From an uncultured Alphaproteobacteria bacterium (lineage in GTDB: Bacteria > Pseudomonadota > Alphaproteobacteria > Rhizobiales > Aestuariivirgaceae), in NCBI GenBank assembly GCA_963831645.1, contig CAWHQZ010000028.1, positions 627,035 to 691,034 of the forward strand: 64,000 bases of DNA, in the 5' to 3' direction. Positions 10,634-64,000 of this stretch are shown here, piece after piece. Every line of letters starts with the position of its first letter. Positions within the stretch are counted from its first letter, which is position 1. The notes beneath the pieces are model-generated. The model did no database searches and had not been told where the DNA came from. It was given only the letters and a program-made list of their open reading frames with translations. Position numbers and translations under genes: made by a program.

Positions 10634-10649
10634 TAGCTGCGCCGCCTCA

Positions 10650-39138: not shown

Positions 39139-39214
<76 letters not shown>

Positions 39215-39267
39215 TCATTTCCACCCGCGTCCCGTCGGGCGAGAAGGCTGCGGAATTGACCCGCCTC

Positions 39268-39783
39268 TCATGCCCTTCGAGTCGCAATCGCTCGCGAAGC
39301 TGGGGGAGGACAGCACCTGGGCTCTCCAGCCCTCGACAAAGAGGAGCAGTTCAAGCATGGCTCAGGTCCTCCACTCCGCCGGCAACCTCCTGCGGATGGC
39401 CGAGAGCGCGTGGCCGAGGAAGCGACTCGACGTTCGGCACGGGCTGCTTGGTAGTGGCCATCTTTGCCAAGGATTTCGGCCATTCCCTTCAACGGAGTTG
39501 CGAAGTCCGGAACCGGTATCAGCGCCAGGAGCAGTCCCGCGATCCAGTAAATGTGGTTGTGCGTGAACAGCGAGAGGAGCCCCAAAACACCTACGATCTG
39601 CAATTGCACTTTGCTGGTCCCGTGCGCCATATGTTCGGGAAGGGCGTGAAGCCGGAAATACAGGATCCCCACCATGAGGATGGTATCGGCGAGGAAGACC
39701 ATCATGACGTTTAGCAGTACGTCGGTTTCTCCCGGAGCCGTTATGAAACCCGGCAAGTGATGCGTCGCTGCGCGGGATCGCAT
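39268..39783 (-). CDS. hypothetical small membrane protein (3 predicted TM helices); C-terminal region probably frame-shifted
   Basis: MMVFLADTILMVGILYFRL..LQIVGVLGLLSLF..YWIAGLLLALIPV hydrophobic segments. The low-complexity tail is unlikely to be native. Confidence 0.35.
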   Translation of the reverse strand: MRSRAATHHLPGFITAPGETDVLLNVMMVFLADTILMVGILYFRLHALPEHMAHGTSKVQLQIVGVLGLLSLFTHNHIYWIAGLLLALIPVPDFATPLKGMAEILGKDGHYQAARAERRVASSATRSRPSAGGCRRSGGPEPCLNCSSLSRAGEPRCCPPPASRAIATRRA

Positions 39784-39796
39784 GCTCGAGCCTCCC

Positions 39797-40161
39797 GACC
39801 GGAATTCTGGTATTCGCCCGGCGTGAAGGCCAATGTGATCTTATTCGACAAGAGAGAGGGCCGTGCCGAAGCCTGGACGGACAAGCTCTGGGTCTATGAT
39901 CTGCGCACTAACCAGCACTTTACGCTGAAGCAGAAGCCGATCAGGCGCGGCGATTTCGACGAGTTCATCGCCTGCTACAAGCCGGGCCGCACGCACGAAC
40001 GTGCCGAGACCTGGAGCGGGGCCAACCCCGAAGGCCGCTGGCGCTGCTTCGACTATGACGAGCTTCTTAAACGCGACAAGCTGAGCCTCGATCTGTTCTG
40101 GATCAAGGACAAGAGCCTGACCGATTACCGACGCCCTGCTCGAGAGAAAACTCGAGAATAA
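39797..40161 (+). pseudogene. hsdM: type I R-M methyltransferase (HsdM) 3' fragment, paralogous remnant
   Basis: ...RPEFWYSPGVKANVILFDKREG..LWVYDLRTNQHFTLKQKP..DFDEFIACYKPGRTHERAETW..NPEGRWRCFDYDELLKRDKLSLDLFWIKDKSLTD matches the HsdM C-terminal domain. No start codon or N-terminal part. Confidence 0.6.
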
Positions 40162-40163
40162 GA

Positions 40164-41300
40164 TTACGGTTGCGAAGGGCTCGCGAGCCGCGCGGCGATC
40201 TTGGTGAACTGTTCGAGCGCCGCCTCCAGATCATCGGCGATCTCGGCAGCGATGATTTCGGGTGCCGGCAGCAGCGTATGCACCCGGCATTTCTGCAAGA
40301 GGTTGCGCCGTACCTTCTCGCCGGCGCCGCCCTCGAACAGCACGTTGTCGGGCACCACCATCGCCGCGCGGCCGTCGATCTTCAACAGCGAGTAGATGTG
40401 CTGCACGAAATTGAGCTGCTTGTTGCTGGTCGAGGTCCAGAAGTCCTCGCGGACGACGATCTGGTCCTCCTTCTCGGTGTCGCCCTCCTCGTTGACGAAC
40501 AGGAGGCTTTGCTTCTTCCCGAACGGTGGATTGGTCAGCACCATCGAGTATTCGCGGCTCCAGGGCGCGGCGAGGCTGTCATGGCCGGTATGGATCACCA
40601 CCGCCGTTTCGCCGCCGATGCCGTGCAGATAGAGGTTCATCGCGCACATGCGGCCGACCTTGGGCGAAAGTTCCATGCCTTCGACCAGTCCTCGCGCAGC
40701 GCCCGCTTCTCGTCGGCGTCGAGGTCGCGCTCGTTGCGGTCGAGCACGTATTGATAGGCGTTGCAGAGGAAGCCGCCGGTGCCCGCCGCCGGATCGCAGA
40801 TCGTGTCCGCCGGCGTCGGCTGCATCACCTCGCACATCGCCTGGATCACCGGCGCGCGTGGTGAAATACTGGCCGGCGCCGCGCGAGGACTCCTGCGCCG
40901 AGCGCGACAGCAATTCCTCGTAGATCGTGCCCTTCACGTCCACCGGCAGCGACAGCCAGTCCACCTTGTCGAGCAGGTTGACGATCAACTGCTTGAGCAG
41001 CGCCGGGTTGTGGATTTCGCAGCGCGCGCCCTTGAAGATGACGCCGAGCATGCCGGGCTTGACGCCGAGCTTTTCGAGGCTCGCGCGGTACTGGTCCTCC
41101 AGCGCCGCGCCGTCGAGCGGCAGCAGCGCCTTCCAGCCGAGTTCCGGCGGCACGATCGGCGCGCGGTTGTAGGGCTCCTCGGTGAGCTGGTCCGCCATCT
41201 TGAGGAAGAGGAGCAGGGTGAGCTGCTCGACATATTCGAAGCAGGACAGGCCGGCGTCCTGCAACACGCCGGCATAGCTCCAGGCCCGCTTACGCGAACA
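40164..41300 (-). pseudogene. hsdM: type I R-M methyltransferase HsdM, disrupted: internal frame breaks and a roughly 115-aa deletion of the C-terminal domain
   Basis: N-terminal FLKM region, GAGQYFTxR motif (in ORF 40637-40849: DTICDPAAGTGGFL), NPPFG, and DNVLFEGGAGEKVRRNLLQKCRVHTLL. The sequence then jumps straight to the extreme C-terminus PAPEIIAAEIADDLEAALEQF. The RLPTGIFY...SLTD segment is missing, and no hsdS or hsdR is nearby. Confidence 0.6.
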
Positions 41301-41568: not shown

Positions 41569-43404
41569 ATGTCTATCCTCTTTCTGGGAACAATCCTGGG
41601 AGCGGTATTGTTGTTTGTCGTGCCGACGCTGATCCGGGAACACCTCTCCCCTGCTGGCTCATTCGGAATCCGGGCGATCGGTGCAGTGCTGATTGCCTGG
41701 GCTGTCCTTTCGACCTCGTTCGTATATGTCGGTGAGAACCAGACTGGCCATCTCAACAAGATATACGCAGGTGGTTCACTGCCCCCGGGTAAAATCATCG
41801 CCACCCAGGGTGAGAATGGACCGCAGGCATCGGTGCTTGCTCCCGGCTTCCATGTCATTCCTTTCATCAACGTCATGTACGACGTGGTGATGCGCGAGGT
41901 GACGGAGATCCCTGATGGACATTATGGGTATCTCGTCGCGCGCGACGGCAAGTCGCTCCGGCCGGACCAGACTTTTGCCGATGCGTTCGACCCGGTGGTC
42001 TCGACCCAGATGGTCAGTGATGCGGCGTATTTCCTGAATCGCGGCGGTCAGAAGGGGCCGCAATCGAGCGTGCTTGGTCCAGGCAAGTATCGCGTGAACC
42101 ACTACCTGTGGCTGCTGGAGACGAAGCCCGCGACGGAAATCCCGCCCGGCTTCGTCGGCGTCGTGAAGTCGAACGTTCACTCTCGCGTCGACTTCGGTAA
42201 TCTGCGCACCGACAAACCGGTGGATTGCGCTCCGATCAGACCCCGAGGGACTGATACCAGCAGTCTTGCCGTGCCGCTCGTTCCCCGCGGATGTGTCGGT
42301 ACGTGGGCTGACCCCCTGCTTCCCGGTCGATATTACATCAACCTGGACGCTTACTCGGTCACGATGATCGACACCCGAGTCCAGACCTGGGAATACAAGG
42401 GCGGTTACACGAGAAGGGATATCAATCTCACCGTCTCTCAAAACGGTGAAATCGAACAAAAGGAAGTTTCACACAATTTTCCCAAGCCCGAGGACTTCGT
42501 CGACATCGCCGTAACGGTCAAGATAGAAGGATCGGACATTCCGCTTGACTTGCGGGTTCTCGTGCAGATCAGGCCGGAAGCCGCGCCGGTTATCGTGGCA
42601 TCGGTCGGCGATCTCGATCGCGTTGAAAATGATATTCTGTCGCCGGTAATCCGGGCGGTAGTCCGTAACGTCACCGGCGGCATGATTAACGCCCCAACGC
42701 TGCTGCGAGATGCCCAGGGCGACTTGATCATCGATGCGGAAGGCAAGCCGACTGTTCGCAGCATTCTTCGGCCGACCCGCCCGCTGGACCTTATCGAGAA
42801 CAGGCCGGTCATCGAGGACGAGGTCGAGCGGCTAGCCAGGCCGGAAGGTCTCAAGGCGGGCGTCGACATCAAGGAGATCCGTCTCGGAGAAGCGGTTATC
42901 CCGCCCGAGTTGCTGCTCGCGGCACGACGAAAGCGCCTCGCGGAGGAGCTCCAGCTCGCCTTCGAAGAGGAAAAGGCCGCTCAGACGGCGCGCATCTCGA
43001 CCGAGCAGGCCAAGGCGACCGCCGATCAGCAAGATGAACTGGTAAAGGCCCAGATCGAGCTCCAGAAGTCGGAGCAGTCGATGAAGGCCCGGCGCAACGA
43101 GGGGCAGGGCGAGCGCGACAAGCTTGCGCTCATCGCTGAAGGCCAGCGAAATCAGGTCGAAGTTCTGGGCCAGGATCGAGTTGTCGATCTGCGGAAATTC
43201 GAGCTTCTCACGGAACGCGCCCTCGGCTTCCTCGAAAACCACCCGGACGTGCTGTCAACTGCGCTCGCGAACGCCCACAAGCTGGTTCCTGAACGCGTGG
43301 TCACCCTCGGAGAGGGCAGCGCCAGCGGCCTTTCCGGAGCAGCGGCGATTTTTGGCGAGCTGTTCGGCTCGCCCGGACCGCGACCGGCGAAAAGCGAGCC
43401 TTGA
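41569..43404 (+). CDS. flotillin-like SPFH/band-7 family protein (611 aa)
   Basis: N-terminal TM segment, SPFH core, long E/A/Q-rich coiled-coil (EELQLAFEEEKAAQTARISTEQAKATADQQDELVKAQIELQ), RBS AAGGGAG. Confidence 0.7.
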   Translation: MSILFLGTILGAVLLFVVPTLIREHLSPAGSFGIRAIGAVLIAWAVLSTSFVYVGENQTGHLNKIYAGGSLPPGKIIATQGENGPQASVLAPGFHVIPFINVMYDVVMREVTEIPDGHYGYLVARDGKSLRPDQTFADAFDPVVSTQMVSDAAYFLNRGGQKGPQSSVLGPGKYRVNHYLWLLETKPATEIPPGFVGVVKSNVHSRVDFGNLRTDKPVDCAPIRPRGTDTSSLAVPLVPRGCVGTWADPLLPGRYYINLDAYSVTMIDTRVQTWEYKGGYTRRDINLTVSQNGEIEQKEVSHNFPKPEDFVDIAVTVKIEGSDIPLDLRVLVQIRPEAAPVIVASVGDLDRVENDILSPVIRAVVRNVTGGMINAPTLLRDAQGDLIIDAEGKPTVRSILRPTRPLDLIENRPVIEDEVERLARPEGLKAGVDIKEIRLGEAVIPPELLLAARRKRLAEELQLAFEEEKAAQTARISTEQAKATADQQDELVKAQIELQKSEQSMKARRNEGQGERDKLALIAEGQRNQVEVLGQDRVVDLRKFELLTERALGFLENHPDVLSTALANAHKLVPERVVTLGEGSASGLSGAAAIFGELFGSPGPRPAKSEP

Positions 43405-43436
43405 CACCGGTTCCAGGCAGCAGACCATGAATGAAC

Positions 43437-45918
43437 TTCGTTCAGGAGTTTCGGACATGCCAAGTCGGTGGCACGCCGTCCTTGCCTTCTGTTGCGTCGC
43501 ACTTCTGCAGCTCTCATCGGCATCCGCAGCGGCGCAAAGCGCCGGCCGAACGCTCTACAGCATCGGGCCGCCGGCAGCGTGGGTCGAACCGGTACGGGCC
43601 GAGTACGACGCTCCTGCGCCGCGCGACGGTGTGCGCGAAGGTTCGTATTTCCTGTTGTACGATACCCAGATAGATGTCGGACCGAACGGCCACGACGAAT
43701 ACTCTCACTTCGCCATCCGCGCGCTGACGCCGGCGGCCGTCAGCAGCAATGCTCAGCTCAACATTTCCGTGGACCCGAGCTACCAGACGCTGGTGCTGCA
43801 TTTCGTACGCTTACGGGGCCGAGGCGAAACCTCTCGTCACGATCCGAGATGGACGCCGGGAGATGCTCTTCGAGTGGCGTGACCTCGCGGCGACACCGGC
43901 GGATCCGGATCGCCCATCGTGGTATTCACCATGGCCATGGCTCGAATTCACGGACCAGGAGGACTGGACGCAAGTCGCGCGCGCCATGAGCGCGCTGTAT
44001 CCGGTGGAGGATCGCCCCGGTGGCGCGGTAGGCCGTGTAGTCGAAACGATACGGGCGAAGGGTGGCACGACGGAAGAACAGGCGCATCGCGCCCTGCAGT
44101 TCGTCCAGGACGAGATCCGCTACACGAGCATTTCGATCGGCCCGGGTTCGCACCGGCCTTCGGCGCCCGAGACCGTGCTCGATCGCCGCTTCGGCGACTG
44201 CAAGGACAAGTCGCTGCTTCTCGTGACGCTGCTGCGCGCGCTCGGTATCGATGCTATGCCCGCGCTCGTGCACACCAGGCGCGGGCATGTGTTGCCGCAG
44301 GCGATGCCGACCCCGTTTGCCTTCGATCACGTCATCGTAAGGGCTGTCCTGCCAAGCGGCGTCTACTGGCTCGACGGCACACGCGCCAGGCAGACGACGC
44401 CGCTGGCGGCGCTCGACCCGCCCGATTACGAGCATGCATTGCTGATCCCTGCCGAAGGACCGTTGCGACATCAGGTGAAGCGCCTTCCGGAAGGCCGGCC
44501 CGCCCATAGGCTGGCCGACATGGCGAAAGCGAACCAGTTGCTGGCGAACCTGTCCAGAGCGAGGCAGCTGGCGCCGATCCCGCGACCTGCGACGGACGTC
44601 GAACGTCACGAAGTGCACGTCGAGTTCGACGCCAGCGAGGGGCTGCAGCAGCCGGCGACGATTGCCGTCACTACGCGTTATTTCGGCGCGACGGCGGACT
44701 TGATGCGCGAGCAGTTCCAGCGGACCCACGCGGCCCAGCGGGAGAAGGACTATCTCAACTACTACGCGCGCCTGTATCCCGGTGTGCAGTCCGCGGGTCC
44801 TGCCGCGGTCGAGGACGATACTTCGAGGAACACTCTTGAGATCCGCGAGCGGTACCGTCTCGATAGCGCGTTCACGAAGGGCGAGGACGGCGCTCTCACA
44901 CTTCTCTTGCCTGCAGATGAGCTGTCTCAGTACGCCACGGCTTTCGACGGGTCGGTTCGCACGTCGCCTCTGGCGCTCGTATTTCCGGTCAACATCACAC
45001 AGTCGATCACGGCGCGGCTTCCGGAGGACTGGGTGGTCAAGGAGGGCACGGTCACGATCGACAACCCCGCCTTCCGCTACCGTTCGCAGGTGCGCTATGC
45101 GCAACGAACGCTGAATTTGCGTTACGAATATGTAGCGCTAGCGGACCACGTGCCGATCGCCGCTCTCCCGCAATATCTCGCCGACCGTGGCCGAATGAAT
45201 TCGGGATATCTACCTTCAGCTCACGCGCGGCCCCGAGGTTGGCATCATCGCCGATTTCGCCATCGCACCGCTGCCGCTCGCCGTACTGCTCGGCGCCCTC
45301 GGCCTCGGGATCTGGCTGGCGTTCCGGCCGATCTATCGCTACGACCCGGCGCCGCGCGCCAGGTCCACGCCGGGAGACGGCCCGCGAGGCATCCGCGGAT
45401 GGCTCGTGTTGCCGGCATTGGGTGCCATCCTCACGCCGATCATGTTGCTGGTGGTGCTTGGCCCGCTCGCCATGTATGTCGAGGCGCACATTTGGCGGAA
45501 CATTCCCGAGGCGGTGTCCGGCGCAGCCGGCGAGTGGATCAGACCCGCAGTACTGCTGCTCCTCGCCGCCACCGCGGTTGCGGTCCCGGCCAGTATTGCC
45601 GCAGGCGTGCTGTTCTTCGCCCGGCGGACCTCCGCCCCGCTGATGTTCGTTGCGCTCCTCTGGTACTCTTCAACCATCGTCGACTTGGCAGCGTTTGGAT
45701 TTTTCTTTTCCGGGCTCGACACCGAGACAAGCCTCGAAACTCTGTATTCCGACACCATTCTGGGTCTGGCGGTCAACGGTATCTTGACCGCGTACATGCT
45801 TACTTCGAAGCGGGTGCGGGTGACGTTCGTGCGGCGCCGCGGCAGGCGCTCCGAGGCGACGGTACCTTCCACTGCAATAGCCGTGTCCGGTGCGCAGAGC
45901 CCGGTGGGGTCAATGTGA
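43437..45918 (+). CDS. DUF3857 / transglutaminase-like cysteine-protease-fold protein with C-terminal multi-TM (DUF2569-like) domain; at least three frame breaks
   Basis: Signal peptide MPSRWHAVLAFCCVALLQLSSASA; transglutaminase-like core RFGDCKDKSLLLVTLLRALGIDA...FDHVIV; C-terminal membrane domain in ORF 45406-45918 (LPALGAILTPIMLLVVLGPLAMYVEAHIW...). Confidence 0.55.
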
Positions 45919-46004
45919 GCCAACCATCTTTTCCAGGCCGGGAAGCGCGTGCTTCGCTCGGAACATCGTTTGTGAATGCGTCTTCCCCGGTTCCGAAGCC
46001 GCAC

Positions 46005-47015
46005 TCATCCTTCCAGGCCGTCGTCCCTGGCCGGCGAGAAGCCGGCGATCGGTCTGTGCTCGGCGAGAAATGAGAGAGTGCTCTCGAGCTGATCGGGTGG
46101 AACAAGAGATCCCAGAGATGCTATCGGCTTTACCCCGATCTCGTTCAAATGCGTCTTCTTCAGGGTCTCGAAATCGTCACCTTGGAGATTTTCGCTGTTT
46201 TCCACGGACAAGGCCCGCACCCGCGCGACCACGGGGCGGCCCGAGCTGGTTAGCGACAGAGAGATTCCGCTTGCCACCCTGGCGTGATCATGCAGCTCGG
46301 GGTTGGACGTGAAGCGCCAGACCATGAGGGTGAGCAGCTTGTGGCGCGTCGAAAGTCGCCCCAGGAATTCGATGCGGTCGACATTGGGAATGACGTAGCC
46401 TTCGAAGACGCGGCGCTCGTCCCGTTCCCGGTCCTTTCCGAGGCTGTACCAGCGAAAATCGCACAACGTGCCGCCGATTACCGTCCTCGGGCGTATGTTC
46501 AGAAGGGAGCAACTGACTTCTTCCGTATTCGAGCGGTTCGCCGGATCGCCCGCATTCTGGAACGAAGACGCCCTCAGCACGGACCACAGGCCGCTGTAGC
46601 GCAGCTCGACTTCATCGGTGTCATCGCGGGAAACCGCCAGCCACTTGGCAAGCGTCTCGTCGATGGCTGGATCCCGATGATTTGCAGGCAACTTGATTTT
46701 CGCCGTTTCCAGCCATTGCGCGCCGAAAAGATGCTGCAGGATGGAAGTAGCGAAATCATCCAGCCGAAGGCCGGGCGCCCGTTCTGAAATAAGCGTCGCG
46801 CAGCGCTCGCAAAACGCGCTGTACATCTCGCTCGCCCGCAAGCTCCGGGAAGACTTGTCGTTGGTATAGTTCTTGACGGCGCTCTCGTCGAAACCGGTGC
46901 CGCTGCTGATCGATTTGTAGGGAATGCTGAGCACGCTGCTCATGTATTTCATCAGCGCGCGCAGCGCGACATGGTCAGCCGGAAGGGGGACCCGTGGCGG
47001 CGACAGAAGGGTCAT
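46005..47015 (-). CDS. hypothetical protein (about 336 aa), no family recognised
   Basis: Long ORF on the minus strand. The start may be 47015 (MTLLSPPRV) or 47072. Local GC looks lower than surroundings. Confidence 0.4.
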   Translation of the reverse strand: MTLLSPPRVPLPADHVALRALMKYMSSVLSIPYKSISSGTGFDESAVKNYTNDKSSRSLRASEMYSAFCERCATLISERAPGLRLDDFATSILQHLFGAQWLETAKIKLPANHRDPAIDETLAKWLAVSRDDTDEVELRYSGLWSVLRASSFQNAGDPANRSNTEEVSCSLLNIRPRTVIGGTLCDFRWYSLGKDRERDERRVFEGYVIPNVDRIEFLGRLSTRHKLLTLMVWRFTSNPELHDHARVASGISLSLTSSGRPVVARVRALSVENSENLQGDDFETLKKTHLNEIGVKPIASLGSLVPPDQLESTLSFLAEHRPIAGFSPARDDGLEG

Positions 47016-47045
47016 TTTCAGAACCGTCGCTATGGCGCAGCGCAA

Positions 47046-47063
47046 TGTGACAATACCGTCACA
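47046..47063. promoter_or_regulatory. Perfect palindrome TGTGAC-N6-GTCACA in the divergent promoter region
   Basis: Seen in the sequence between the minus-strand hypothetical gene (start about 47015) and the plus-strand TIGR04222-like gene (start about 47233). Resembles CRP/FNR-class dimer sites. Confidence 0.4.
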
Positions 47064-47232
47064 ATCTACCATATCCGGCGCCGTTTGCACGTGTGGGGCC
47101 TGCACGTGCTGGAACGAGCGAGCGGCCGCGGCAGCCCGCGAAACCGGCGAGCCTCCTGGCACCACATGCCACCACGCCCGGCGGGACAGCCCGGAAAGTG
47201 GCCCCTAGACAGGGATCATCTCGGATTACGGG

Positions 47233-48098
47233 AGGTGATCATGAACACGAAACTGCAGCGCAACGCCGGAATGTATCCCGCGCGTTATGGCGGAGAGGGA
47301 CATTGGCCGCATCATCCGGACCTCCTGACCCGCACCCCGCCCCCGGCAGGGGAGCATCACAGGGAATGTGGACCCTTACGAGATTGCCTTCCTGCGCAGT
47401 GATGAAAACGCGGTCCTGACTCTGGCTCTTTTCGACCTCGTGCAGCGCGGACATCTGCAGGTCGTTGAAACGAAGCGTTGGCTGGGAACCGAGCAGAGGC
47501 TCCGGCGGCAGAAAATCCACCTTCGCACGACCGTTTGACGGAGGCCGAAAAGGATCTCATCGGCAGGTTCAGCACCCCTCTTGCTGCCAGCGAGACCTTC
47601 GCGTTCGGCCTGACCGAAGCGCTGCGATCGGCTTGCTCCGGCTATCGAACCAGGCTCGAAGAGACAGGTCTGTTGCGGACGCAGGACCAGGCGAAACTGC
47701 GGAGAACGGCGCTGGGAGTAGCAGCGTTTGTCGGTTTCATTGCGCTGGCTGCGGCAAAAGCGCCCCTTCCGATGTTCCTGGCATGTTTCGCGGCGGTCAT
47801 TGCGGCGAACGCCCTTCTCTCATCTCGCCTGACCGCGGCCGGCAAGGCGCACCTGAAACGGATCGAGGCGCGGCTCGCCCGCCTCAAGGACCGTCCTAAA
47901 GCCGCCCGGTTGGGCGCCGCCGATCCTCTGCTTCTGACGGCGGTAGGCGTGTTTGGTGTCCCGATCCTCGCCGGCAGCGCCTACGACGCATTCGCGGCAG
48001 CCGTGAAGCCGATGGCAAGCGGCACATGGAGCTTCAGTGCCGATGGATGCGGTGGAGACGGATGCGGGGGGTGCGGCTGCGGGTGCGGGGGTGAATGA
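47233..48098 (+). CDS. TIGR04222-family membrane protein with C-terminal Cys-Gly repeat tail; about two frame breaks near the 5' end
   Basis: Hydrophobic helices (VAAFVGFIALAAA, MFLACFAAVIAANALLS) and a terminal GCGGDGCGGCGCGCGGE tail. The N-terminal pieces DPYEIAFLRSDENAVLTLALFDLVQRGHL are in other frames. Confidence 0.5.
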
Positions 48099-48700
48099 CC
48101 GTGAGCGGCGCGACTCCTGCCGCTCGCGGTGCATCGGTTGTTGCCGGCTGCAGCGGGGCGAAACCGGGGCATTATTCGGCCGACCCCCTCTGGAACCGAA
48201 TCGAGGACTTCCGGTTCGATGACCCCGCCGCCCAACTGTCGTTCTCTCAGCGCCTGGCGCGGGAAAACGGCTGGTCCCGCTACTACGCCAGCCGGGTCAT
48301 CGCCGAGTACAAGAAGTTCTGCTACTTGGCGATGACGGCGGGCCACAGCGTCACTCCCTCCGATGAAGTCGATCAGGCGTGGCATCTGCACCTTATCTAT
48401 ACGCGGAGCTACTGGGACGGTTTCTGCGGCCGGGTGCTCGGGCGTGCATTTCACCACGGCCCGACCCGCGGCGGCGCCGATGAAAGCGCCAAGTTTCACG
48501 ATTGGTACGAAGCGACTCTCGTTTCCTATCAGAGCACCTTCGGCTCGCCGCCACCGACCGACATATGGCCGGGACCGGAGTCACGCTTTGCCAAGACCCG
48601 AACGCTTCCGCCGCATCGACACGGCATCCTGCTGGCTTCTGCCAAAGCCCCGTTTGCGCCTTTTTGCCCGGCGCTGGCGCAAGGAGGCCTGATCATGGCT
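48095..48700 (+). CDS. DUF1399/GRDP-like protein (family assignment by eye only)
   Basis: PLWNRIEDFRFDDP..FSQRLARENGWS..AEYKKFCYLAMTAGHSVTPSDEVDQAWHLHLIYTRSYWDGFC. Start overlaps the TIGR04222-like stop (ATGA). The ORF tail beyond about 48700 looks like frame-shifted read-through. Confidence 0.45.
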
Positions 48701-49028
48701 CACACCAGCGGCTCGACTGAACGGACCCTCGGCAGGAAACGGCAGTACCGCCCGATATCTGGCAGACCTGCTCTGCTTGAGCGTGGACGTGGTTTGCCAC
48801 TCATTGCGAGGCGCATTTCCTCCAGTTTGCATGTAAGTTCTAGCTTGGCCCAGGAGAACGTCACAGGAGCCAATGGCGCGGATCGGAGGCCAACGGCGAG
48901 GCTTTCGTCACCGGCGATAGTGCTCGATCGCCTCGACCACCGTGCCCTTCACCGAGGCCGGGAAGTAAGTAGTATTCCCGCTGTAGGGCTTTTGCCTTGG
49001 GCGGGTACGAGCGGGGACGCCGAACAGG

Positions 49029-51316
49029 ATGGATAGCGACCCAAAACCGAAACGCAAGATTTCCGCCATCCTGGCCGCCGACGTCGTGGGATACTCGTCT
49101 CACACGGAAAAGGACGAGGCCGGAACGTTCACGCGTCTCAGGTCTCTCCGCAAGGAGCTTTTCGAACCGCAGATCAGAAACCATCACGGCCGCATATTCA
49201 AGCTGATGGGCGACGGTCTGCTGGCCGAGTTTGCCAGTGTCGTGGAAGCGGCTCAGTGCGCGGTCATAGTGCAGAGGGAGATGGCGAGCCGCAATGAGAA
49301 GCTGCCGGAGGACCATCGCATCCGTTTCCGGATGGGCATCCATCTCGGCGACATCATCGTTGAGGGCAAGGATCTCCTTGGCGACGGCGTGAACATTGCC
49401 GCCCGTCTTCAGCAGCTCGCCGAGCCAGGTGGCATCGCTGTGTCCGGAGTGGTTCGCGAAAATGTCGGCAACCGGCTTGCTCTCGCCTTCGAGGATAGGG
49501 GCGAGCAGCGGTTAAGGAACATCGAACGGCCGATGCGAGTCTATAGCCTGCTACTTGAAAATGATCGGCCCAAAACAGCAAACGGCCGGGCTGCTGCCTG
49601 GATCGGCGGGCCGATAATGGTCGCTCTCCTTATTGCGGTGATGGTCGAATGGCCGCTGTGGTCTCCCCAGTCGAAATTGGCCATCTCCATCTCAATTGCC
49701 AGCTCCAGCAACAAGGAGGAGTGGCTGAACGAGGCGATCGCTTCGTTCAATGCCGCCTCCAGGACCAGCGCGGCGCTGCAACTCGATGGCAAGCCGGTCT
49801 CTGTCGATGTGGTCCTGGAACAGCTTGAGCCCGGCAAGAAAGACCACTATCGCTCCGGCTCCATGGTTGCCGATATCCTGCCCGGCAAGATCAAACCCAC
49901 TATCGCCTCTCCGGCCGAAAAATTCTGGATATCGAAGCTGAACAACGATTGGCAGGCGGCCAACTCCAAGCCGATAACAACCGAACAGGCGCCGGCTACG
50001 GCGCGCACACCACTCGTCATCGCCATGTGGGAGTCGAGAGCCCAGGCTTTGGAGTGCTGGCCATCTCCAAAACCGCAGTGCACATGGGAGCGTATCCGTG
50101 CCCTTGCGACGAACGCGGACGGATGGACGATGTTCGGGAGGCCCGATTGGGGCAAGTTCAAGCTGGGCTACGGCCACATGGATCAATCCAACTCGGGCAC
50201 CCTGACTGCCGCCATCCTATGCATGCGGGGCCTTGGTAAGAGCGGCGACCTCACCATGGAAGATGTAGACGCAGGCAACGGGTGTGGCCGGATGATTGCC
50301 GCCGTCGAAAAAGCCAAAGTGCACAGCGGCAAAAGGAGTGCTTGGCTGCTCGACAGAATGCGAACCGGCGGTCCAGAATATCTGGACGCTATCGTCACCA
50401 ACGAACAGGAGGTAGTCGAATTCAACCATGACCCGTCGGGGTTGAGAGAGCCCATGGTGTCCGTCTATCCGCAGGACGGCACCGTGTTCAATACCCATCC
50501 CTTCGCCATTCTTGACGGGGCACCGTGGGTCAGCCCGGAGCAAGTCAAAGCGGCAGAGATTTTTCGAAAGTATCTGCTCTCCGACGAACAGCAGGCGCTG
50601 CCTCGTCAAGCACGGCCTCAGGCCGGTCGATGAAGACGCACCGCTCGGTGCTCCTCTGGAAACGGCATATGGTGCTAATCCGGAGGCCAAGCTGGTGACT
50701 ATTGAAGTGCCGGAGGTTCAGGTCTTCGATCGCGTGCGAGAGGTATGGCACGAAGTAAAGAAGCACGCTCACATCGCCATTGTATTTGACAAGTCGAGCA
50801 GCATGGCGGGCGAAAAAATGACCCAGGCTGTCCAAGGCGCGCAGGCGTTTGTATCGGCCATGGACGCGAAGGACTGGCTCGCCTGGTTCACCTTTGATGA
50901 CCGGATTTATGCCAGGACCCAAGGGCTCAAGTCGGAAACCGGCGTGCAACTGCTGAGCGACATCAGATCAACCACCGCTTTCGGCGGTACGGCGCTTTAC
51001 GATGCGGTGGCTTGCTGCGTTTGATACATTGGCAAACAAGCGAAGAACTCGGGAGGATTCGGTTCGCTACGGCATTGTGATCCTCTCGGATAGCGGGGAC
51101 ACAAGCAGTACCACCACATGGACTGCGCTCGAGGCGAAGCTGAAAGATTCAGAGCAAGATCCCACAGGGATCCAGATTCACGCCATAGGCATTGGCGATG
51201 AAGCCAACGAGGCAGTGCTTAAGAAGATCGCCAATCTTGCCCACGGAAGATACTGGAAAGTGAAGAACCCTGCCGACGTTGTCGCGGTTTATAGAGAGAT
51301 CGCCACTCACTACTGA
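49029..51316 (+). CDS. multidomain signalling protein: class III adenylate/guanylate cyclase, TM, periplasmic-binding-protein-like domain, vWA domain; two frame breaks (about 50600 and about 51010)
   Basis: Cyclase motifs ILAADVVGYSS...FKLMGDGLLAEF...GIHLGDII..GDGVNIAARL. TM VALLIAVMVEWPLW. vWA MIDAS HIAIVFDKSSSMAG...DxxGxT in ORFs 50512-51024 and 51002-51316. Confidence 0.6.
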
Positions 51317-51358: not shown

Positions 51359-51560
51359 TTATTGCGCCTTGCTCCGGATTGCCTTCGCGCGAGCTTCCAT
51401 TTCTTCCGCCTGGGAATGGCGCCCGGTCTGCCGTAGCAGCGCCGCGTAACCTTCGAGGCTCGCCGCCACCTGGGGATGCTCGGGCCCGAGAGTCTTTTCA
51501 TCGATGCTGCGCTCTTGCGCTCGCTCAATGAGATGCTCAACAAATCGCCGTGGTTTAATG
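51359..51560 (-). pseudogene. TPR-protein C-terminal remnant
   Basis: ...DEKTLGPEHPQVAASLEGYAALLRQTGRHSQAEEMEARAKAIRSK is a kinesin-light-chain-type TPR. Upstream it collides with a plus-strand gene fragment. Confidence 0.35.
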
Positions 51561-51950
51561 TGCACTCCATAGTTGTCGCGCGCAGCGGCAAGCTGGTCTA
51601 TGAGGTTTATCGTACCGGCTTTGACGAGAACTGGGGAACCCGGCTCGGCACCGTATCCTACACGGCGGACATGCCACACGATGTCCGCTCGATCAGCAAG
51701 AGCGTTGTCTCGCTCCTCTTCGGGATCGCGCTCGATCGAGGATTGATTGCAAGCGTCGATGACCCAGTGCACATCTACTTTCCCGACTATGCGGTGCTTC
51801 GGACGCGGAAAAGGACGCATTCTGCTACGGCATTGTTGACGATGACATCAGGGCTCGAGTGGGACGAGCACCGTTCGTACGACGATCCAAAGAATAACGA
51901 AATCATGATGAGCGGTTCTCAGACGGGAGACCCGATTCGTAAATCAAATC
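51476..51950 (+). pseudogene. beta-lactamase-family serine hydrolase fragment (N-terminal half only)
   Basis: SxxK active site RSISKSVVSLLFGIALDRGLI and YFP motif. No signal peptide or C-terminal half. Confidence 0.45.
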
Positions 51951-52028
51951 GTTGTCCCAACTCCCGCGATAGCGGGTTCGTTCAATCCCCTAACTGAAGA
52001 CAGGCCCTAGAGGTCCTGTGTAACGGGA

Positions 52029-53221: not shown

Positions 53222-53426
53222 GATGAATACCGCTGAATTGCCGAGTACCGGCTTCCTTCGCCAGCCTTCCATCATCGCCCCGAATGGACCAATCCCGGTT
53301 AGCCGCTCCACTTGGTGGGCAGGCGTCAAGGAAGGCCGCTACCCCAAGCCGGTGAAGCTTGGCCCTCGAATTACCGCTTGGCGCGTGGAAGACATCCGCG
53401 CCCTGATCGAGAAGGGCGCCGCCTGA
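53222..53426 (+). CDS. alpA: AlpA-family phage/island transcriptional regulator (excisionase-like HTH)
   Basis: MNTAELPSTGFLRQPSIIAPNGPIPVSRSTWWAGVKEGRYPKPVKLGPRITAWRVEDIRALIE is a canonical AlpA motif. Confidence 0.75.
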
Positions 53427-53427
53427 C

Positions 53428-53946
53428 ATGACCCGTCGCCGCGCGTCGGCCCGGCGGGTCAAGAAGCACTTGAGCTACACGGCAGAAGAGGCGGCGGACG
53501 TGCTGGGCGTCCATCGCCATACCGTGCGGCGCTGGATCACCTCCAAGGCCCTTCCGGCGCTGACCGACAAGAGACCGCATCTGATCCTCGGCCGCGACCT
53601 TCAGGCCTTCCTGTTCGCTCCCTCACCCGGCCGGGCAAGGCTGAAGCCGGGCGAATTCTACTGCGTCAAGTGCCGCCTTCCGAAACGGCCGGCACTCGGC
53701 ATGGCGGACTACATGCCGATCAACGACCGCATCTGCAATCTGCGGGGCATCTGCCCCGACTGCGAAATCCTGATTTACCGCCGCGTCGCCCTGGACAAAC
53801 TTGACGCAGTTTCCGGCGATCTGGAGATAACGCGCCCGCCCACGGAGCAACACCTATTAGAGCGCTCCCGCCCCTCCATAAATGTTGACTTTGGAGAGAC
53901 CCGACATGACCCGATCAAAGCACTGCGTCGAAAACAAGCGGATTAA
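53428..53946 (+). CDS. HTH-domain protein with C-terminal Cys-rich (zinc-ribbon-like) segment
   Basis: TAEEAADVLGVHRHTVRRWI HTH, then CVKCRLP...CPDCEI. Its 3' end overlaps the integrase start. Confidence 0.45.
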   Translation: MTRRRASARRVKKHLSYTAEEAADVLGVHRHTVRRWITSKALPALTDKRPHLILGRDLQAFLFAPSPGRARLKPGEFYCVKCRLPKRPALGMADYMPINDRICNLRGICPDCEILIYRRVALDKLDAVSGDLEITRPPTEQHLLERSRPSINVDFGETRHDPIKALRRKQAD

Positions 53947-55005
53947 GCGCCGTTACCTGCAATGGCTGAAGGACGCTAAGGGATACGGCATCGCCTCCAC
54001 CGACATGGCCGCGGCAGCTATCGCCCGATTCGAAGGCTATACCGGTCACCGCGACTTCAGGCGTTTCCATGTGGAGCAGGCGCGCGGTTTCAAGGCCCAT
54101 CTCACCGGCAAGGCGAAGGGTGCCCGATCCGGCGAACCCCTGAGCAGGGCGACGGTGGCATCCACCCTGAGACAGCTCAAGGCCTTCTTCACATGGCTTG
54201 CCGATCAGCCGGGCTACCGGTCCGCCATCCGCTATGCGGACGCGGCCTATTTCACTCCAGCGAGCCAGGACGAGCGGATCGCCAGCGGCGTGCGCTTCAG
54301 GCCGATACCTGAGCCGGAGGAGATCGAGAAAGTCCTGCGCGCCATGCCGGATGACACCGAAATTGCCAAGCGGGACAGCGCCCTCATCGCCTTCATCTTC
54401 CTGACCGGGGCGCGCGACCGGGCGGTTGCATCGCTGAAGCTGAAGCATCTGGACATCGAAACTGGCAAGGTTTTTCAAGATGCCCGCGAAGTCAAAACTA
54501 AGCGCGCCAAGACCTTCGTGACGCAGTTCTTCCCCGTTGGCGAACTGCCCCCCACCATAGTCAGGGAATGGGTAGACTTCCTGAAAACCAAGGGCTTCGG
54601 TCCTGATGACCCTCTGTTCCCGGCGACCGAAGTGGTGCTTCATGGCATGGTGCAGTCCGCGACCGTCGGACTTTCCCGCGGCACTGGCAGACGACGACGC
54701 CGATCCGCAAAATCTTCAGGACAGCCTTCGCTCGCGCTGGGCTTCCCTACTTCAATCCTCACAGCTTCCGGTCAACCCTCGCCCGGCTTGGCGAGAGGCT
54801 TTGTGGCCCCGGGGAGGAATGGAAGGCGTGGAGCCAGAATCTTGGCCACACCGATATGATGACGACATTCTCAAGCTACGGGCACGTGCCCGAGCACCGG
54901 CAATGCGACATCATCACCAATATCGGGCAGCGGAAAAAGGAGCCGGACGATCTCGCATCGGTCATTGCCAGCGCCATTCGCAGCTCGGGCATAAAGGCGG
55001 CGTGA
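53906..55005 (+). CDS. int: tyrosine site-specific integrase; at least one frame break (about 54640-54700)
   Basis: N-terminal SAM-like domain in frame 2. Catalytic C-terminus FNPHSFRSTLARLGE...NLGHTDMMTTFSSYGHV (R..H..R..Y) is in frame 1 and ends at 55005. Confidence 0.7.
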
Positions 55006-57686: not shown

Positions 57687-58656
57687 ATGGGCGGCGACAA
57701 TGAGAGCTCGAACTCGATGACGCGGCCCGGGCCGGCTGGCTCTACTTCATCGCCGGCAATACCCAGGGCGAGATCGCCAGGAAACTGAATGTCTCTCGCC
57801 CGACGGCGCAGCGCCTCGTCTCGCTGGCTCTCTCCGCGCGCCTGATCACCTTCCGCCTCGAGCATCCGATTGCCGCCTGCATGGCGCTCGCGAGGGACCT
57901 GAAGGATCGCTTCGGCCTGGTCTACTGCGAAGTCGTGCCGACCAATTCGGAGGCGCCTTCCTCGGCCGCCGGCATCGCCAAGAGCGCGGCAGCGTTTCTC
58001 GAGCATCGGCTGCGCTCTGACGTCCCGGCCATCATTGCCCTTGGAACGGGACGGGCGCTCAGGGCCGCGGTCGAAGAGCTGCCGGCGATGAGCTGTCCCA
58101 GCCATCAACTGGTTTCCCTGGTCGGCAATATTTCGCCCGATGGCTCGGCGAGCTTCTATGATGTGCTGACCCGCATGGCGGAATCTGACCCAGGCGCCGC
58201 ATTACCCCATGCCGCTGCCGCTGTTCGCATCGTCCGCCGAAGAGCGCGATCTGTTTGCCAGCCTGTCCACGGTCAAGAAGGTGCGCACTCTCGCACAGCG
58301 GGCCGACTTGACGCTGGTCGGCGTCGGCCAGATCGACCTCGAGGCGCAGATCTACGTGGATGGTTTCGTCAGCCGCGGCGATCTACTGGAATTCATCCGC
58401 AACGGCAGCATCGGCGAAATCGTCGGTTGGTGTTTCGACGCTAAAGGGGAAGATCGTCGGCGGCCCCTCGCGCGACAGAATCACCAGCGTGCCGCTGGAG
58501 ATCCCGGCCAAGAGGCTCATCGTCGGCGCGGCCGTCGGCGCCGCCAAGGCAGCGGCGATCCGAGCCGCTGTCACCGGCAGGCTGCTGAGCGGGCTCATCA
58601 CCGATGAGCAAACCTCGAGGGCAATTCTCCGCCTTGACGCAAAGTCAACCGTGTGA
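57687..58656 (+). CDS. SorC-family sugar-binding transcriptional regulator (polyol operon regulator); about three frame breaks
   Basis: HTH LDDAARAGWLYFIAGNTQGEIARKLNVSRPTAQRLV plus a sugar-binding domain, spread over ORFs 57881-58444, 58209-58607 and 58360-58656. Confidence 0.6.
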
Positions 58657-58704
58657 GAGCATTTGCTTGCAAAAGGAGCAAATGCTCCAGTTAGGGAGGA
58701 AGTC

Positions 58705-60020
58705 ATGAAGCGTCTAGCAGGCATTATCCTCGGTGCCGTGTCGTTCCTCGCTGCCGGAATGGCTGCGGCGGAGACCAAGCTCACCATCGCTACCGTAAAC
58801 AACGGCGACATGATCCGCATGCAGGGTCTGACCGAAGATTTCACGGCCAAGAACCCGGACATAACCCTCGAGTGGGTGACACTCGAAGAAAACGTTCTGC
58901 GCCAAAAGGTAACCACCGACATCGCAACCAAGGGCGGACAGTTCGATGTGCTGACGATCGGGACTTATGAGGTGCCGATCTGGGCTGGCAAGGGGTGGCT
59001 CGTACCCCTCGAGAACCTCGGCGCCGACTATGACGTGGACGATCTCCTGCCGGCCATACGGGCCGGCCTCAGCCACGAGGGCAAGCTCTACGCAGCGCCG
59101 TTTTACGGTGAAAGCTCCATGGTGATGTATCGCAAGGACCTCATGGAAAAGGCGGGGCTCACCATGCCGGACGCGCCGACGTGGGAGTTCATCGCCGAGG
59201 CGGCGCGAAAATGACCGACAAGGCAAACGAGGTCTATGGAATCTGCCTGCGCGGCAAGGCCGGCTGGGGCGAGAACATGGCCTTTCTTTCGGCAACGGCG
59301 AACTCCTTCGGAGCCCGCTGGTTCGATGAGAACTGGAAGCCGCAGTTCGACCAGCCGGAGTGGAAAAAGACCATGGACTTCTATGTGAGATCTGATGAAA
59401 GACGCCGGGTCCTCCCGGCGCCTCCTCCAACGGTTTCAACGAGAACCTGGCGCTGTTCAACTCGGGCAAATGCGGCATGTGGATCGATGCCACGGTAGCC
59501 GCCTCGTTCGTGACCAACCCGAAGGAATCAAAGGTGCACGACAAGGTCGGTTTCGCGCTCGCCCCCGATACGGGTCTGGGCAAGCGCGGCAACTGGCTGT
59601 GGGCATGGTCGCTCGCCGTTCCGGCCGGTTCGCAGAAGTCGGACGCGGCGCAGAAGTTCGTCTCCTGGGCAACCAGCAAGGATTACCTCGGCATCGTCGC
59701 GGCCGAAGAAGGCTGGGCCAACGTTCCACCGGGCACGCGGGCCTCGCTCTACAAGAACCCTGAATATCTGAAGGCGGCGCCGTTCGCGCAGATGACGCTG
59801 AACTCGATCAACTCTCGCCGACCCCACGAAGCCGACCGTAAAGCCGGTGCCTTATGTCGGCGTGCAGTTCGTGGCGATCCCGGAGTTTCAAGGCATCGGG
59901 ACGACCGTCGGCCAGATGTTCTCGGGTGCGCTGGCCGGCGACATGACGGTCGACGAGGCGCTCACCAAGGCCCAGGACGCGGTCACCCGCGAGATGACCA
60001 AAGCAGGCTACATCAAGTAG
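58705..60020 (+). CDS. smoE: ABC transporter periplasmic sugar/polyol-binding protein (SmoE-like); about four frame breaks
   Basis: Signal peptide MKRLAGIILGAVSFLAAGMAAA, RBS AGGGAGGA. SBP family-1 segments are spread over ORFs 58663-59214, 59181-59498, 59477-60181 and a final frame ending ...TKAGYIK. Confidence 0.6.
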
Positions 60021-60983: not shown

Positions 60984-61812
60984 ATGGCTCGGGCGCTGTC
61001 GGTGAGACGAAGGATGGTAACCACGCTCGCGGCATGGACGGCCGGCTTCGTCATCTTCTTTCCGATACTGTCGATGTCCCTCACGAGCTTCAAGACCGAG
61101 CTCGACGCCTTCTCGACGCCGCCGCAGTTCCTGTTCTTCGACTGGACAGTCGAGAACTACGCAATCGTCCAGGAACGCTCCGACTATTTCCGCTTCGCAA
61201 TGAATTCCATCGTGCTGTCGTTTGGAGCCGCATTGCTGAGCCTGCTGTTCGCAATTCCGGCGGCGTGGTCCATGGCATTCGCCCCGCGCAAGCGGACCAA
61301 GGACCTGCTGATGTGGATGCTGTCGACCAAAATGATGCCGCCGGTCGGCGCGCTGATACCGATCTACCTGCTGTTTCGCGACGGCGGTCTTCTCGATACC
61401 CGCATCGGCCTGATCGGCGTTCTGTTCCTTCTCGACCTGCCGATCGTCGTGTGGATGCTCTATACCTATTTCAAGGAGATTCCGGGTGAAATCCTGGAAG
61501 CCGCCCGCATGGACGGCGCTTCGCTGTGGAACGAGCTCGTGTATGTTCTCGCTCCCATGGCGGTGCCCGGCATCGCGTCCACCTTGCTGCTCAACATCAT
61601 TCTGACCTGGAACGACTCGTTTTCGACGCTCAACCTGACGACCTCGGATGCAGCGCCGCTGACCGCCTTCATCGCATCCTACTCGAGCCCCGAGGGGCTG
61701 TTCTGGGCCAAACCGTCGGCTGCCTCGACCCTCGCCATCGCGCCGATCCTGGTCCTTGGCTGGCTGGCGCAGCGCCAGCTGGTGAGGGGCCTCACTTTTG
61801 GGGCCGTCAAAT
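60984..61812 (+). CDS. smoG: ABC transporter permease (SmoG-like, MalG-type)
   Basis: Six TM segments with EAARMDGAS loop. The ORF track reads through into the ATPase gene, so the native stop is probably obscured by an indel near 61800-61815. Confidence 0.65.
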
Positions 61813-61841
61813 GGTCGCCAACTTGTGAGGGCTCGCACCCA

Positions 61842-62880
61842 TGGGCACAATCGTTCTCAAGCGTGGAAAAGAGCTTCGGTGAAGTCGTCATCATTCCGGG
61901 CGCCGACCTGACGATCGACGACAACGAATTCGTGGTGTTTGTCGGTCCCTCGGGCTGCGGCAAGTCCACGCTGCTGCGGCTGATCGCGGGGCTCGAGGAC
62001 CTGAGCGGGGGTGACATCTTCATCGACGGCGTGAGCGCCCGTCAACGTGCCGCCGGCCAAACGCGGACTGTCGATGGTGTTCCAGTCCTACGCGCTCTAT
62101 CCGCACATGAGCGTGCGCAACAATATCGCTTTCGGCCTGAAAATGGCCGGACAGTCGAAGGAAGAAATCGCCGCCAGGGTGGGCAAGGCGGCGCAGGTCC
62201 TCAACCTCACCGAATACCTCGACCGCAAGCCCAGGCAACTGTCCGGCGGCCAGCGCCAGCGCGTAGCCATCGGACGGGCGATCGTCCGCGAGCCGAAGGC
62301 GTTCCTGTTCGATGAGCCGCTGTCCAATCTCGATGCCGCGCTCCGGGGGCAGATGCGAATCGAGATCATGCAGCTTCACCAGTCGCTGGGGGCGACGATG
62401 ATCTATGTCACCCACGACCAGGTGGAAGCCATGACGATGGCGGACCGCATCGTAGTTCTCAACAAGGGCAACATCGAACAGGTCGGCTCGCCACTGGAGC
62501 TGTACAACCAGCCGCAGACGCTGTTCGTCGCCGGCTTCATCGGCTCGCCCAGCATGAACTTCGTCACCGGGCAGGCAGCGCAAAAGCTTCGCGCTCACAC
62601 GGCCGGGATACGTCCCGAACACATCGCGATCGACAAGAAAAGCGGAACCTGGCGGGGAACGGTGGAACTGGCGGAGCACCTCGGGGCGGACACCATCCTG
62701 CACGTGGAGACCCAGCTCGGCCGCCTCACGGTCCGCACGCCCGGCGAACTCTCGGTCGCGCCGGGCGACAAGTTATGGCTGACACCCATCGCCGACCGCC
62801 TCCATCGCTTCGACAGCGACGGCAAAGCACAACGCAACGGATCGGGAGGATATCGACGGGGGCGCGATGTATCTGGATAA
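61842..62880 (+). CDS. smoK: ABC transporter ATP-binding protein (SmoK/MalK-like); two frame breaks (about 61870 and about 62040)
   Basis: Walker [14 protein letters not shown]-loop, signature [14 protein letters not shown], Walker [11 protein letters not shown], and the MalK-type C-terminal regulatory domain. Confidence 0.75.
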
Positions 62881-63645: not shown

Positions 63646-63675
63646 CATACGTTCGGTCATCGGATCGCCGTGTCG

Positions 63676-64000
63676 GAATCTCTTTTCACTCAAGGGTCGG
63701 GTTGCGCTCGTTACCGGCGCTTCCCGCGGCCTTGGGCTGGCCATGGCGAAAGCGCTCACCGATCATGGAGCCCAGGTTTTCGTAAGTGGCCGCGATCCGC
63801 GCACCCTGGCCGACGCGGCGAGCCGGACCGGGGCAGCACCGATCGCCTTCGACGTGGGCGATGCGCGGGCCTGCCGGGCGGCGCTCGAGGAGGTGATCGG
63901 CAAACGTGGTCGCCTCGACATCGTCGTCAACAATGCCGGAGTTCAGCATCGCGCCGCCCTGCTCGACTGGACGGACGAGGATTTCGAACGGATCCTTGCC
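63676..64000 (+). CDS. second short-chain dehydrogenase/reductase, 5' part (continues beyond window); frame break at the very start
   Basis: LKGRVALVTGASRGLGLAMA...VVNNAG. A probable GTG start at about 63676 is one base out of frame with the body (a T-run). Confidence 0.6.

Follow-up and report, generated by a model that had tools for sequence, protein, structure and literature searches.

At positions 49029–51316 of the window, by which we mean the whole 64,000-nucleotide stretch of contig CAWHQZ010000028.1 from an uncultured alphaproteobacterium that was analyzed here, three open reading frames (ORFs) lie in consecutive frames on the + strand with overlapping ends, namely ORF1 (49029–50633), ORF2 (50512–51024), and ORF3 (51002–51316). 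When each is compared with Pfam by itself, ORF1 matches Guanylate_cyc and SBP_bac_11, ORF2 matches the N-terminal half of VWA, and ORF3 matches its C-terminal half. The three ORFs are one gene that encodes one protein, in which a class III nucleotidyl cyclase domain is followed by a single transmembrane (TM) helix, a domain resembling solute-binding proteins (SBPs), and a von Willebrand A (vWA) domain. A sequence-only reading of this DNA had described such a fusion, and its coordinates, domain order, and approximate sizes agree with the ORF list, the Pfam matches, and our reconstruction.

One gene across two frame breaks

Deletion of one base at ~50601 and of another at ~51010 gives a 761-amino-acid product from a gene that spans 49029–51316 (+ strand) and ends in a stop codon at 51314–51316. 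In a profile hidden Markov model scan of this frame-corrected protein, Guanylate_cyc, SBP_bac_11, and VWA all exceed their Pfam gathering thresholds, and these three domains, together with the only strongly hydrophobic segment of the product, bear out the four-part architecture of the sequence-only reading. Given that the vWA domain is cut in the middle of its fold and that the ORF ends overlap, the interruptions look like frame breaks and not gene boundaries. Two orthologs are intact. The first, at locus L006 in a metagenome-assembled genome (MAG) of an uncultured alphaproteobacterium, is an uninterrupted ORF (10001–12277) of 758 amino acids that is 93% identical to the reconstruction, has neither stop codon nor frameshift, and reads DEQQALLVKHGLR and YDAVLAALDTL unbroken over the two break points. 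The second, P0001 (locus L002), comes from another metagenome and is an intact protein of 782 amino acids with 64% identity over 99% coverage, in which Pfam again recognizes Guanylate_cyc, SBP_bac_11, and VWA. Because both orthologs read straight through, there is one gene here, as had been claimed, and not three.

The hypothesis of three independent genes, in which a soluble cyclase/SBP protein is encoded next to a separate vWA protein, does describe the raw ORF structure, and gene callers split the gene on the contigs of sister loci too. We nevertheless give it practically no credence. It is refuted by the read-through ORFs of L006 and P0001, neither of which has a stop codon between the parts; the Pfam VWA model is divided in mid-domain between ORF2 and ORF3; and the ORFs, which overlap in consecutive frames, show continuous homology with single proteins of ~590 amino acids. 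Purifying selection acts on all three domains as parts of a single gene. Comparing the frame-corrected window gene with L006 by the Nei–Gojobori method gives an overall ratio of nonsynonymous to synonymous substitution rates (dN/dS) of 0.25, with values of 0.15 for the cyclase, 0.21 for the SBP domain, and 0.41 for the vWA domain; the comparison with P0001, in which dS is saturated, gives 0.125.

The two breaks can be compared across the loci that form a clade with the window (L001, L003, L006, L007, and L008). The first (50600–50601, + strand) is an extra C, the window having GCGCTGCCTCGTC where L003, L006, and L007 have GCGCTGCTCGTC and L001 and L008 have GCGCGCCTCGTC; all five sister loci are one base shorter than the window. 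The second (51009–51010, + strand) is also one extra base, with GCGGTGGCTTGCTGCG in the window and GCGGTGCTTGCTGCG in L006. Here, L003, L006, and L007 lack one base relative to the window and L001 lacks three, which leaves L001 in the same frame as the window. Both breaks thus amount to one added base in a homopolymer of one to two bases, and private single-base indels occur elsewhere in the gene in every sister locus. The same kind of damage is found in ordinary genes of the window. A CYTH-CHAD gene is split by frame into two pieces (9043–10284 and 10082–10630), as are an ABC ATPase (60984–62315 and 62035–62877) and a SorC-type Sugar-bind regulator (57881–58444 and 58170–58604); a short-chain dehydrogenase is split into three (62783–63109, 63013–63429, and 63198–63785); and an SBP_bac_1 gene is broken and truncated (58657–59211). 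This corresponds to at least five breaks in ~6.8 kb of ordinary genes (~0.7 per kb), compared with two in the 2.3 kb of the cyclase gene. At ~0.7–0.9 indels per kb, error alone predicts that about one in six copies of a 2.3-kb gene would be intact, and one such copy, L006, is seen. Since ordinary genes show the same break density and the homopolymer changes are private, both breaks are most likely errors of homopolymer length in a long-read metagenome assembly and not signs of decay, and the organism itself probably has an intact cyclase gene.

It could instead be argued that both frameshifts are real and that this strain carries only the decaying remains of the gene, in an island rich in junk. 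At least one disruption is present in five of the six loci of the window clade, and in L001 (7553–8474) and L008 (2697–3604) a bona fide insertion sequence of ~0.9 kb, encoding a DDE_Tnp_1/DUF4096 transposase on the minus strand, interrupts the vWA domain after the point equivalent to window position 51146. Gene fragments also lie directly downstream of the cyclase gene, within 51359–51997, where a fragment with the beta-lactamase fold on the + strand (model positions 18–122 of 329) overlaps a TPR_12 fragment on the − strand, and the window is without a 1.65-kb segment (an M48 peptidase and a 267-amino-acid gene) that L003 and L007 have at the position equivalent to 48779. Against this hypothesis, both breaks are private single-base gains in homopolymers, their density equals that of housekeeping-type genes over the window, the private indels differ between the sister contigs, the indel rate by itself explains why about one in six copies is intact, and a dN/dS of 0.25 implies constraint until very recently. 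We therefore regard decay as unlikely.

The sister loci are MAG contigs whose names ("contig_N") are in the style of long-read assemblers, and the window itself resembles an unpolished long-read assembly, in which pseudogene calls need caution. For annotation, the lesson is that the background rate of breaks should be checked before pseudogenes are called in long-read MAG windows.

Domains and predicted topology

The catalytic domain of a class III nucleotidyl cyclase occupies residues 13–174 (49065–49550, + strand). PF00211 (Guanylate_cyc) matches this segment with 33.7 bits against a cutoff of 21.9, and the nearest sequences in the PDB are 3mr7 (E value 2e-42), followed by Ma1120 and Rv1900c. 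The six canonical catalytic residues (D18, K58, D62, D115, N122, and R126) are all in place and align with conserved columns of the solved cyclases. Their spacing is canonical, with K58 four positions before D62, D115 seven positions before N122, and R126 four positions after N122. The metal-binding aspartates are D18 in AADVVGYS and D62 in KLMGD, and the transition-state residues N122 and R126 lie within GDGVNIAARL; these roles are ones we assume from the canonical spacing and numbering of Rv1625c-type cyclases. The Lys58/Asp115 pair, in place of which guanylate cyclases have Glu/Cys, predicts that the substrate is ATP and the product cyclic AMP (cAMP) rather than cyclic GMP (cGMP). Thus, the canonical cyclase domain of the sequence-only reading is upheld by all six residues, and of the two products it had allowed, cAMP and cGMP, the Lys/Asp pair points to the former and away from the latter. 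The short distance between D62 and D115 suggests a short-arm, class IIIc-like domain. Since the catalytic domain begins at about residue 9, it has no regulatory domain on its N-terminal side.

A hydropathy scan finds a sole strongly hydrophobic segment, residues 188–211 (AAAWIGGPIMVALLIAVMVEWPLW; 49590–49661, + strand), with a Kyte–Doolittle mean of 2.27 over 19 residues. Directly before it stands RPKTANGR, which places basic residues on the N-terminal side of the helix. From these features a type II (N-in) single-pass topology is inferred, in which the cyclase would be cytoplasmic and the SBP-vWA part, ~550 residues in length, would lie outside. The outside location is favored because, in related fusions, domains that use ATP must be cytoplasmic, and the four near-invariant cysteines of the SBP domain, which fit an oxidizing compartment, agree with it. 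The topological reasoning of the sequence-only reading is supported in the same way by the single hydrophobic segment, the basic residues on its N-terminal side, and the kinase fusions discussed below. The linker between the cyclase and the TM helix is ~14 residues long in the window clade and ~35 in P0001, and the linker and TM region evolve rapidly (dN/dS ~1.3 in the comparison with L006).

The first ectodomain unit, residues 222–530 (49692–50619, + strand), has the type II periplasmic-binding-protein fold and resembles SBP_bac_11 (PF13531; 42.5 bits against a cutoff of 25). It contains the near-invariant motifs SNSGT, KVHS, GPEYLD, and DGT..HP in addition to the four near-invariant cysteines. 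An AlphaFold2 model of this segment has a mean predicted local distance difference score (pLDDT) of 93.3 and a predicted template modeling score (pTM) of 0.87. In Foldseek, its best PDB neighbors are proteins that bind molybdate, sulfate, or tungstate (4kd5, 5um2, 1sbp, 6ddn, and 3cg1; ModA, Sbp, and SubI), with E values of ~1e-8, TMq of 0.56–0.65, and 12–15% identity. The SNSGT motif resembles the Ser/Gly/Thr loops with which PstS and Sbp bind anions, a likeness that we take as a lead only. The second unit, the vWA domain (residues ~581–748; 50773–51274, + strand), matches PF00092 with 44.6 bits against a cutoff of 23.8 and finds the vWA structures 8s05 and 5a8j in the PDB; a PDB search with a profile of the SBP-vWA family matched the vWA domain only. 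The metal-ion-dependent adhesion site (MIDAS), of which the sequence-only reading had noted the DxSxS motif, is complete, comprising D587-K-S589-S-S591 (window 50788–50802), T654 in GGTALYD, and D687 in LSDSGD, and these residues are conserved throughout the SBP-vWA family.

Origin of the fusion and function of its ectodomain

The SBP-vWA half of the protein is not unusual, as it belongs to a large uncharacterized family of anchored proteins. Among 8000 scored candidates, 6829 were significant, and the relatives of ~590 amino acids are 50–77% identical over residues ~190–761 with 70–76% query coverage. In members that stand alone, just a few cytoplasmic residues come before the single TM helix, which leads into the SBP and vWA domains. 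With the window protein they share the order TM-SBP-linker-vWA, the cysteines, the MIDAS, and the motifs ASSxxK..WL, SNSGT, KVHS, GPEYLD, and DGT..HP.AILD..PWV; they differ in having only a short cytoplasmic tail where the window protein has a cyclase of 180 residues. They are commonly labeled "Ca-activated chloride channel family protein" (JGI/KEGG) or, among plasmid homologs, "substrate-binding and VWA domain-containing protein" (PGAP), NCBIfam holds no model specific to the family, and our literature search found no study of any stand-alone member.

The stand-alone gene adjoins a TelA-family gene in three of the four loci examined (L004, 5378–7959; L005, 5399–7981; L167, 8692–9939). Two of these three also encode a conserved coiled-coil-like protein of 449 amino acids, with 72% identity between the two copies, and the set of TelA, SBP-vWA, and 449-amino-acid proteins resembles an uncharacterized conserved operon. 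By tblastn, neither TelA nor the 449-amino-acid partner was found in the window, L003, or L006. In L166 (27–5370), three tandem SBP_bac_11-like paralogs of 657, 503, and 470 amino acids precede a stand-alone SBP-vWA gene, a cluster in which this SBP type has expanded locally.

The cyclase half has a different affinity. Its nearest relatives (~55–65% identity) are abundant proteins of Mesorhizobium, Sinorhizobium, Phyllobacterium, and Rhizobium in which a cyclase at the N terminus is followed by one TM helix and a periplasmic "TolB-like"/TPR region. These rhizobial proteins agree with the window protein in the N-terminal position of the cyclase, the catalytic motifs, the order of cyclase and TM helix, and the nearest solved domain (3mr7), and differ in that the periplasmic part is wholly replaced by SBP-vWA in the window protein. 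Judged by these alignments, the fusion looks like an ectodomain swap onto an existing rhizobial cyclase-TM scaffold, in which the TolB-like/TPR part was exchanged for the entire ectodomain of an anchored SBP-vWA protein.

Both halves are common and the fusion is rare. We found it in two lineages only, the window clade (the window, L001, L003, L006, L007, and L008) and P0001. Scanning a single genome for each GTDB species returned three loci that span the cyclase-TM-SBP junction at 87–92% identity, all in MAGs labeled "uncultured Alphaproteobacteria bacterium" (MFD00962.bin.2.181, on two contigs, and MFD05454.bin.2.245). The fusion was not found by tblastn in 72,556 plasmid records (none at 80% coverage or above), nor in the other 157 of 165 fetched genome and metagenome loci (160 from two collection scans); a JGI metagenome scan returned 80 loci, none of which carries SBP-vWA; and a plasmid megablast with window positions 41–53 kb gave no match. 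Word-indexed searches with the N-terminal 260 residues and with the junction (residues 100–330) yielded no new fusion and missed P0001 as well, and a representative search clustered at 50% identity hides P0001 and is thus unfit for counting fusions. Being heuristic or capped, these searches support "rare" and not "unique". Proteins of 750–830 amino acids that matched ORF1 in two stretches were considered as candidate fusions and rejected, as they are tandem-cyclase/TPR proteins by sequence and Pfam. In the literature we found no account of a cyclase-SBP-vWA protein, only cyclase-vWA proteins of MoxR systems and the kinase-vWA protein PpkA. The sequence-only reading had called the architecture one that is not commonly described; this holds for the junction and does not hold for the SBP-vWA and cyclase-TM-periplasmic halves, each of which is common.

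Several lines of evidence bear on what the ectodomain does. The SBP(-vWA) unit follows a single TM helix behind Hanks-type kinases in P0062, P0246, and P0247 (for P0246 and P0247, Pkinase E values of 1e-23 to 1e-25), and in P0244 a winged-helix region precedes the SBP domain, with a weak, below-threshold match to Trans_reg_C (22.7 bits) that hints at a ToxR-like DNA-binding domain. The SBP module is also found behind long multi-TM regions (P0011, P0025, P0242, and P0382). The kinase fusions have the same ectodomain (47–59% identical), one TM helix, and a cytoplasmic enzyme that depends on dimerization, and the neighbors of P0062 are a gene with an FHA domain and another SBP-vWA gene, which stands alone. 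Sensor modules typically recur in fusions with unrelated signaling outputs, and this pattern argues that the ectodomain is an extracytoplasmic sensor that transmits inward. A broader proposal, which we offer tentatively and ourselves regard as doubtful, is that SBP-vWA is a widespread unrecognized sensor module, with an oxyanion-type cleft and a MIDAS, wired interchangeably to TelA-type proteins of envelope or anion stress, Hanks kinases, ToxR-like regulators, and an adenylate cyclase.

Taking the evidence together, we favor as probable the hypothesis that the gene is intact, that its breaks are assembly errors, and that it encodes a single-pass, N-in membrane adenylate cyclase with an SBP-vWA ectodomain. 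A receptor function is plausible. Class III cyclases are active only as dimers, and in such a receptor a small anionic ligand in the SBP cleft, a carboxylate of a protein or ligand at the MIDAS, or both, would shift the self-association of the ectodomain. The changed self-association would then bring together or reorient the two cyclase domains of the obligate dimer and so set the output of cAMP. Control would be by proximity or dimerization, as in single-pass receptor kinases including PpkA, which is activated through its periplasmic domain by dimerization. The linker is short, varies, and evolves fast, which makes such control likelier than signaling by helix rotation.

A number of observations weigh against this hypothesis. 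Between the cyclase and the TM helix, no signal-transducing element (HAMP, S-helix, or cyclase transducer element) is recognizable, and the ectodomain may therefore have no part in regulating catalysis. Nothing encoded nearby, be it a ligand, partner, cAMP receptor, or phosphodiesterase, links the protein to a pathway. The likeness to oxyanion-binding SBPs is a lead to an anionic ligand, but it is remote and identifies none. TelA is presumably cytoplasmic or membrane-associated, and the stand-alone members linked to it may not be sensors. The insertion sequence truly inactivates the gene in the strains of L001 and L008, so that the gene is dispensable in at least some strains, and the beta-lactamase-fold and TPR_12 fragments downstream are either gene remnants, which would count in the same direction, or further frame-broken genes. 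In part, these points are those expected if the ectodomain serves adhesion, scaffolding, or the handling of envelope stress and the cyclase is just anchored to the membrane, being constitutively active or controlled from the cytoplasmic side. The missing transducer elements, a linker whose length varies by lineage and which shares with the TM helix the elevated dN/dS, and the linkage of the stand-alone family to TelA and not to signaling genes at three of four loci would all fit such a protein. However, the same ectodomain has been joined independently to two or three signaling outputs behind one TM helix, and cyclase dimerization could be controlled by the ectodomain without a rigid linker. 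A role outside signaling is thus, in our view, improbable.

Comparison with known systems places the proposed adenylate cyclase receptor in context. Bacterial class III cyclases accept many sensor domains, and another combination is unsurprising in itself; the value of the fusion lies in what it says about the large uncharacterized SBP-vWA family. Metazoan receptor guanylyl cyclases have a periplasmic-binding-protein-fold ectodomain, a TM helix, a kinase-homology domain, and a class III cyclase. They share with the window protein a single-pass logic, with that fold on the outer side of the membrane and a class III cyclase that works as a dimer on the inner side, and they differ in that the ectodomain is N-terminal and of the type I fold, a kinase-homology domain and a coiled-coil transducer are present, there is no vWA domain, and the substrate is GTP. 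By analogy of architecture, the window protein can also be likened to PpkA of Pseudomonas aeruginosa (kinase-TM-periplasmic vWA), which has been described as a kinase followed by ~300 amino acids and a vWA domain (Krupa and Srinivasan 2005, PMC1262709). PpkA and the kinase fusions phosphorylate, whereas the window protein would make cAMP and has no FHA partner. The cyclase, kinase, and, with weak support, DNA-binding fusions place the SBP-vWA module outside the membrane, and the cyclase version would be the most convenient handle for finding a ligand, as cAMP can be read by complementation. If the module is indeed a sensor, cAMP in a cya-deficient host would report what thousands of "substrate-binding and VWA" proteins sense.

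Class III cyclase and vWA domains are also known within one polypeptide from conflict systems, as cyclic nucleoside monophosphate (cNMP) cyclase domains are fused to vWA components of vWA-MoxR-VMAP systems, often with Band 7 (Kaur et al. 2020, PMC7159879). This precedent raises the alternative that the window gene belongs to a defense system, either of that kind or Pycsar. A Band_7 gene lies 6 kb upstream of the cyclase gene, PADLOC gives weak PycC matches to the cyclase of up to 26 bits, and the gene shares a possible island with a neighboring type I methylase. Those fusions are, however, described as cytoplasmic and dependent on MoxR/VMAP, with cyclases that are often inactive and no SBP domain, whereas the window protein has a TM helix, an SBP domain, a canonical active site, and a C-terminal vWA domain beyond the TM helix. 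The Pfam lists of the neighbors in the window, L001, and L003, to which no dedicated search was added, contain no MoxR/AAA protein, VMAP, or cNMP-binding effector, and the neighbors of the cyclase gene have no PADLOC match. Since the PycC matches (15–26 bits) reflect nothing beyond generic class III similarity, we rejected a defense role, which we consider very improbable.

Genomic neighborhood

The sequence-only reading had placed the gene on a mobile island. In keeping with this, the window contains a tRNA-Phe (GAA) gene at 39139–39214, followed within 39139–41267 by a type I restriction-modification methylase (N6_Mtase) on the minus strand (PADLOC MTase_I, E value 1e-85). On the other side of the cyclase gene there are an excisionase-type HTH_17 protein (53407–53943) and an ORF (53882–54859) that matches Phage_integrase weakly (17.7 bits; model positions 5–69 of 172) and is probably a frame-broken tyrosine recombinase. 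An insertion sequence also lies inside the cyclase gene in two sister loci, as noted above. A search for an att-type direct repeat of the tRNA-Phe end found none, and we consider these features no more than suggestive of a mobile island, which is plausible. The tRNA-Phe and methylase genes may mark the edge of an island, and no integrase adjoins the tRNA-Phe gene. Between the methylase and the cyclase gene, within 41569–46073, are an SPFH/Band 7 protein of 611 amino acids and a transglutaminase-core protein of 774 amino acids; neither has a PADLOC or NCBIfam match, and neither is shared with the sister loci.

From 46005 to ~51320, the window forms a block that is conserved by blastn in L003, L006, and L007 (92–94% identity) and in L001 (94.9%). 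Its flanks differ between the sister loci and its left edge at 46005 is sharp. The block is present twice in one MAG, and these copies could be paralogs or could reflect strain mixing. The genes upstream of the cyclase gene within the block (46005–49028) travel with it in all sister loci. They comprise an ORF of 386 amino acids on the minus strand without a family match (46005–47165), a TIGR04222-type membrane protein (47368–48098; NCBIfam TIGR04222) that is itself frame-broken, and a UCP032817-like protein (48095–~48720; precomputed match to PF27765). The additional 1.65 kb of L003 and L007 (Peptidase_M48 and the 267-amino-acid gene) is likewise missing from L001 and L006. In L004, a protein of 108 amino acids (5004–5330) encoded upstream of the TelA/SBP-vWA operon resembles window positions 47329–47562, in the N-terminal part of the TIGR04222-type protein. 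The similarity is weak (42–53% over 55–79 amino acids, E value ~1e-6), and it may point to a shared partner of SBP-vWA proteins.

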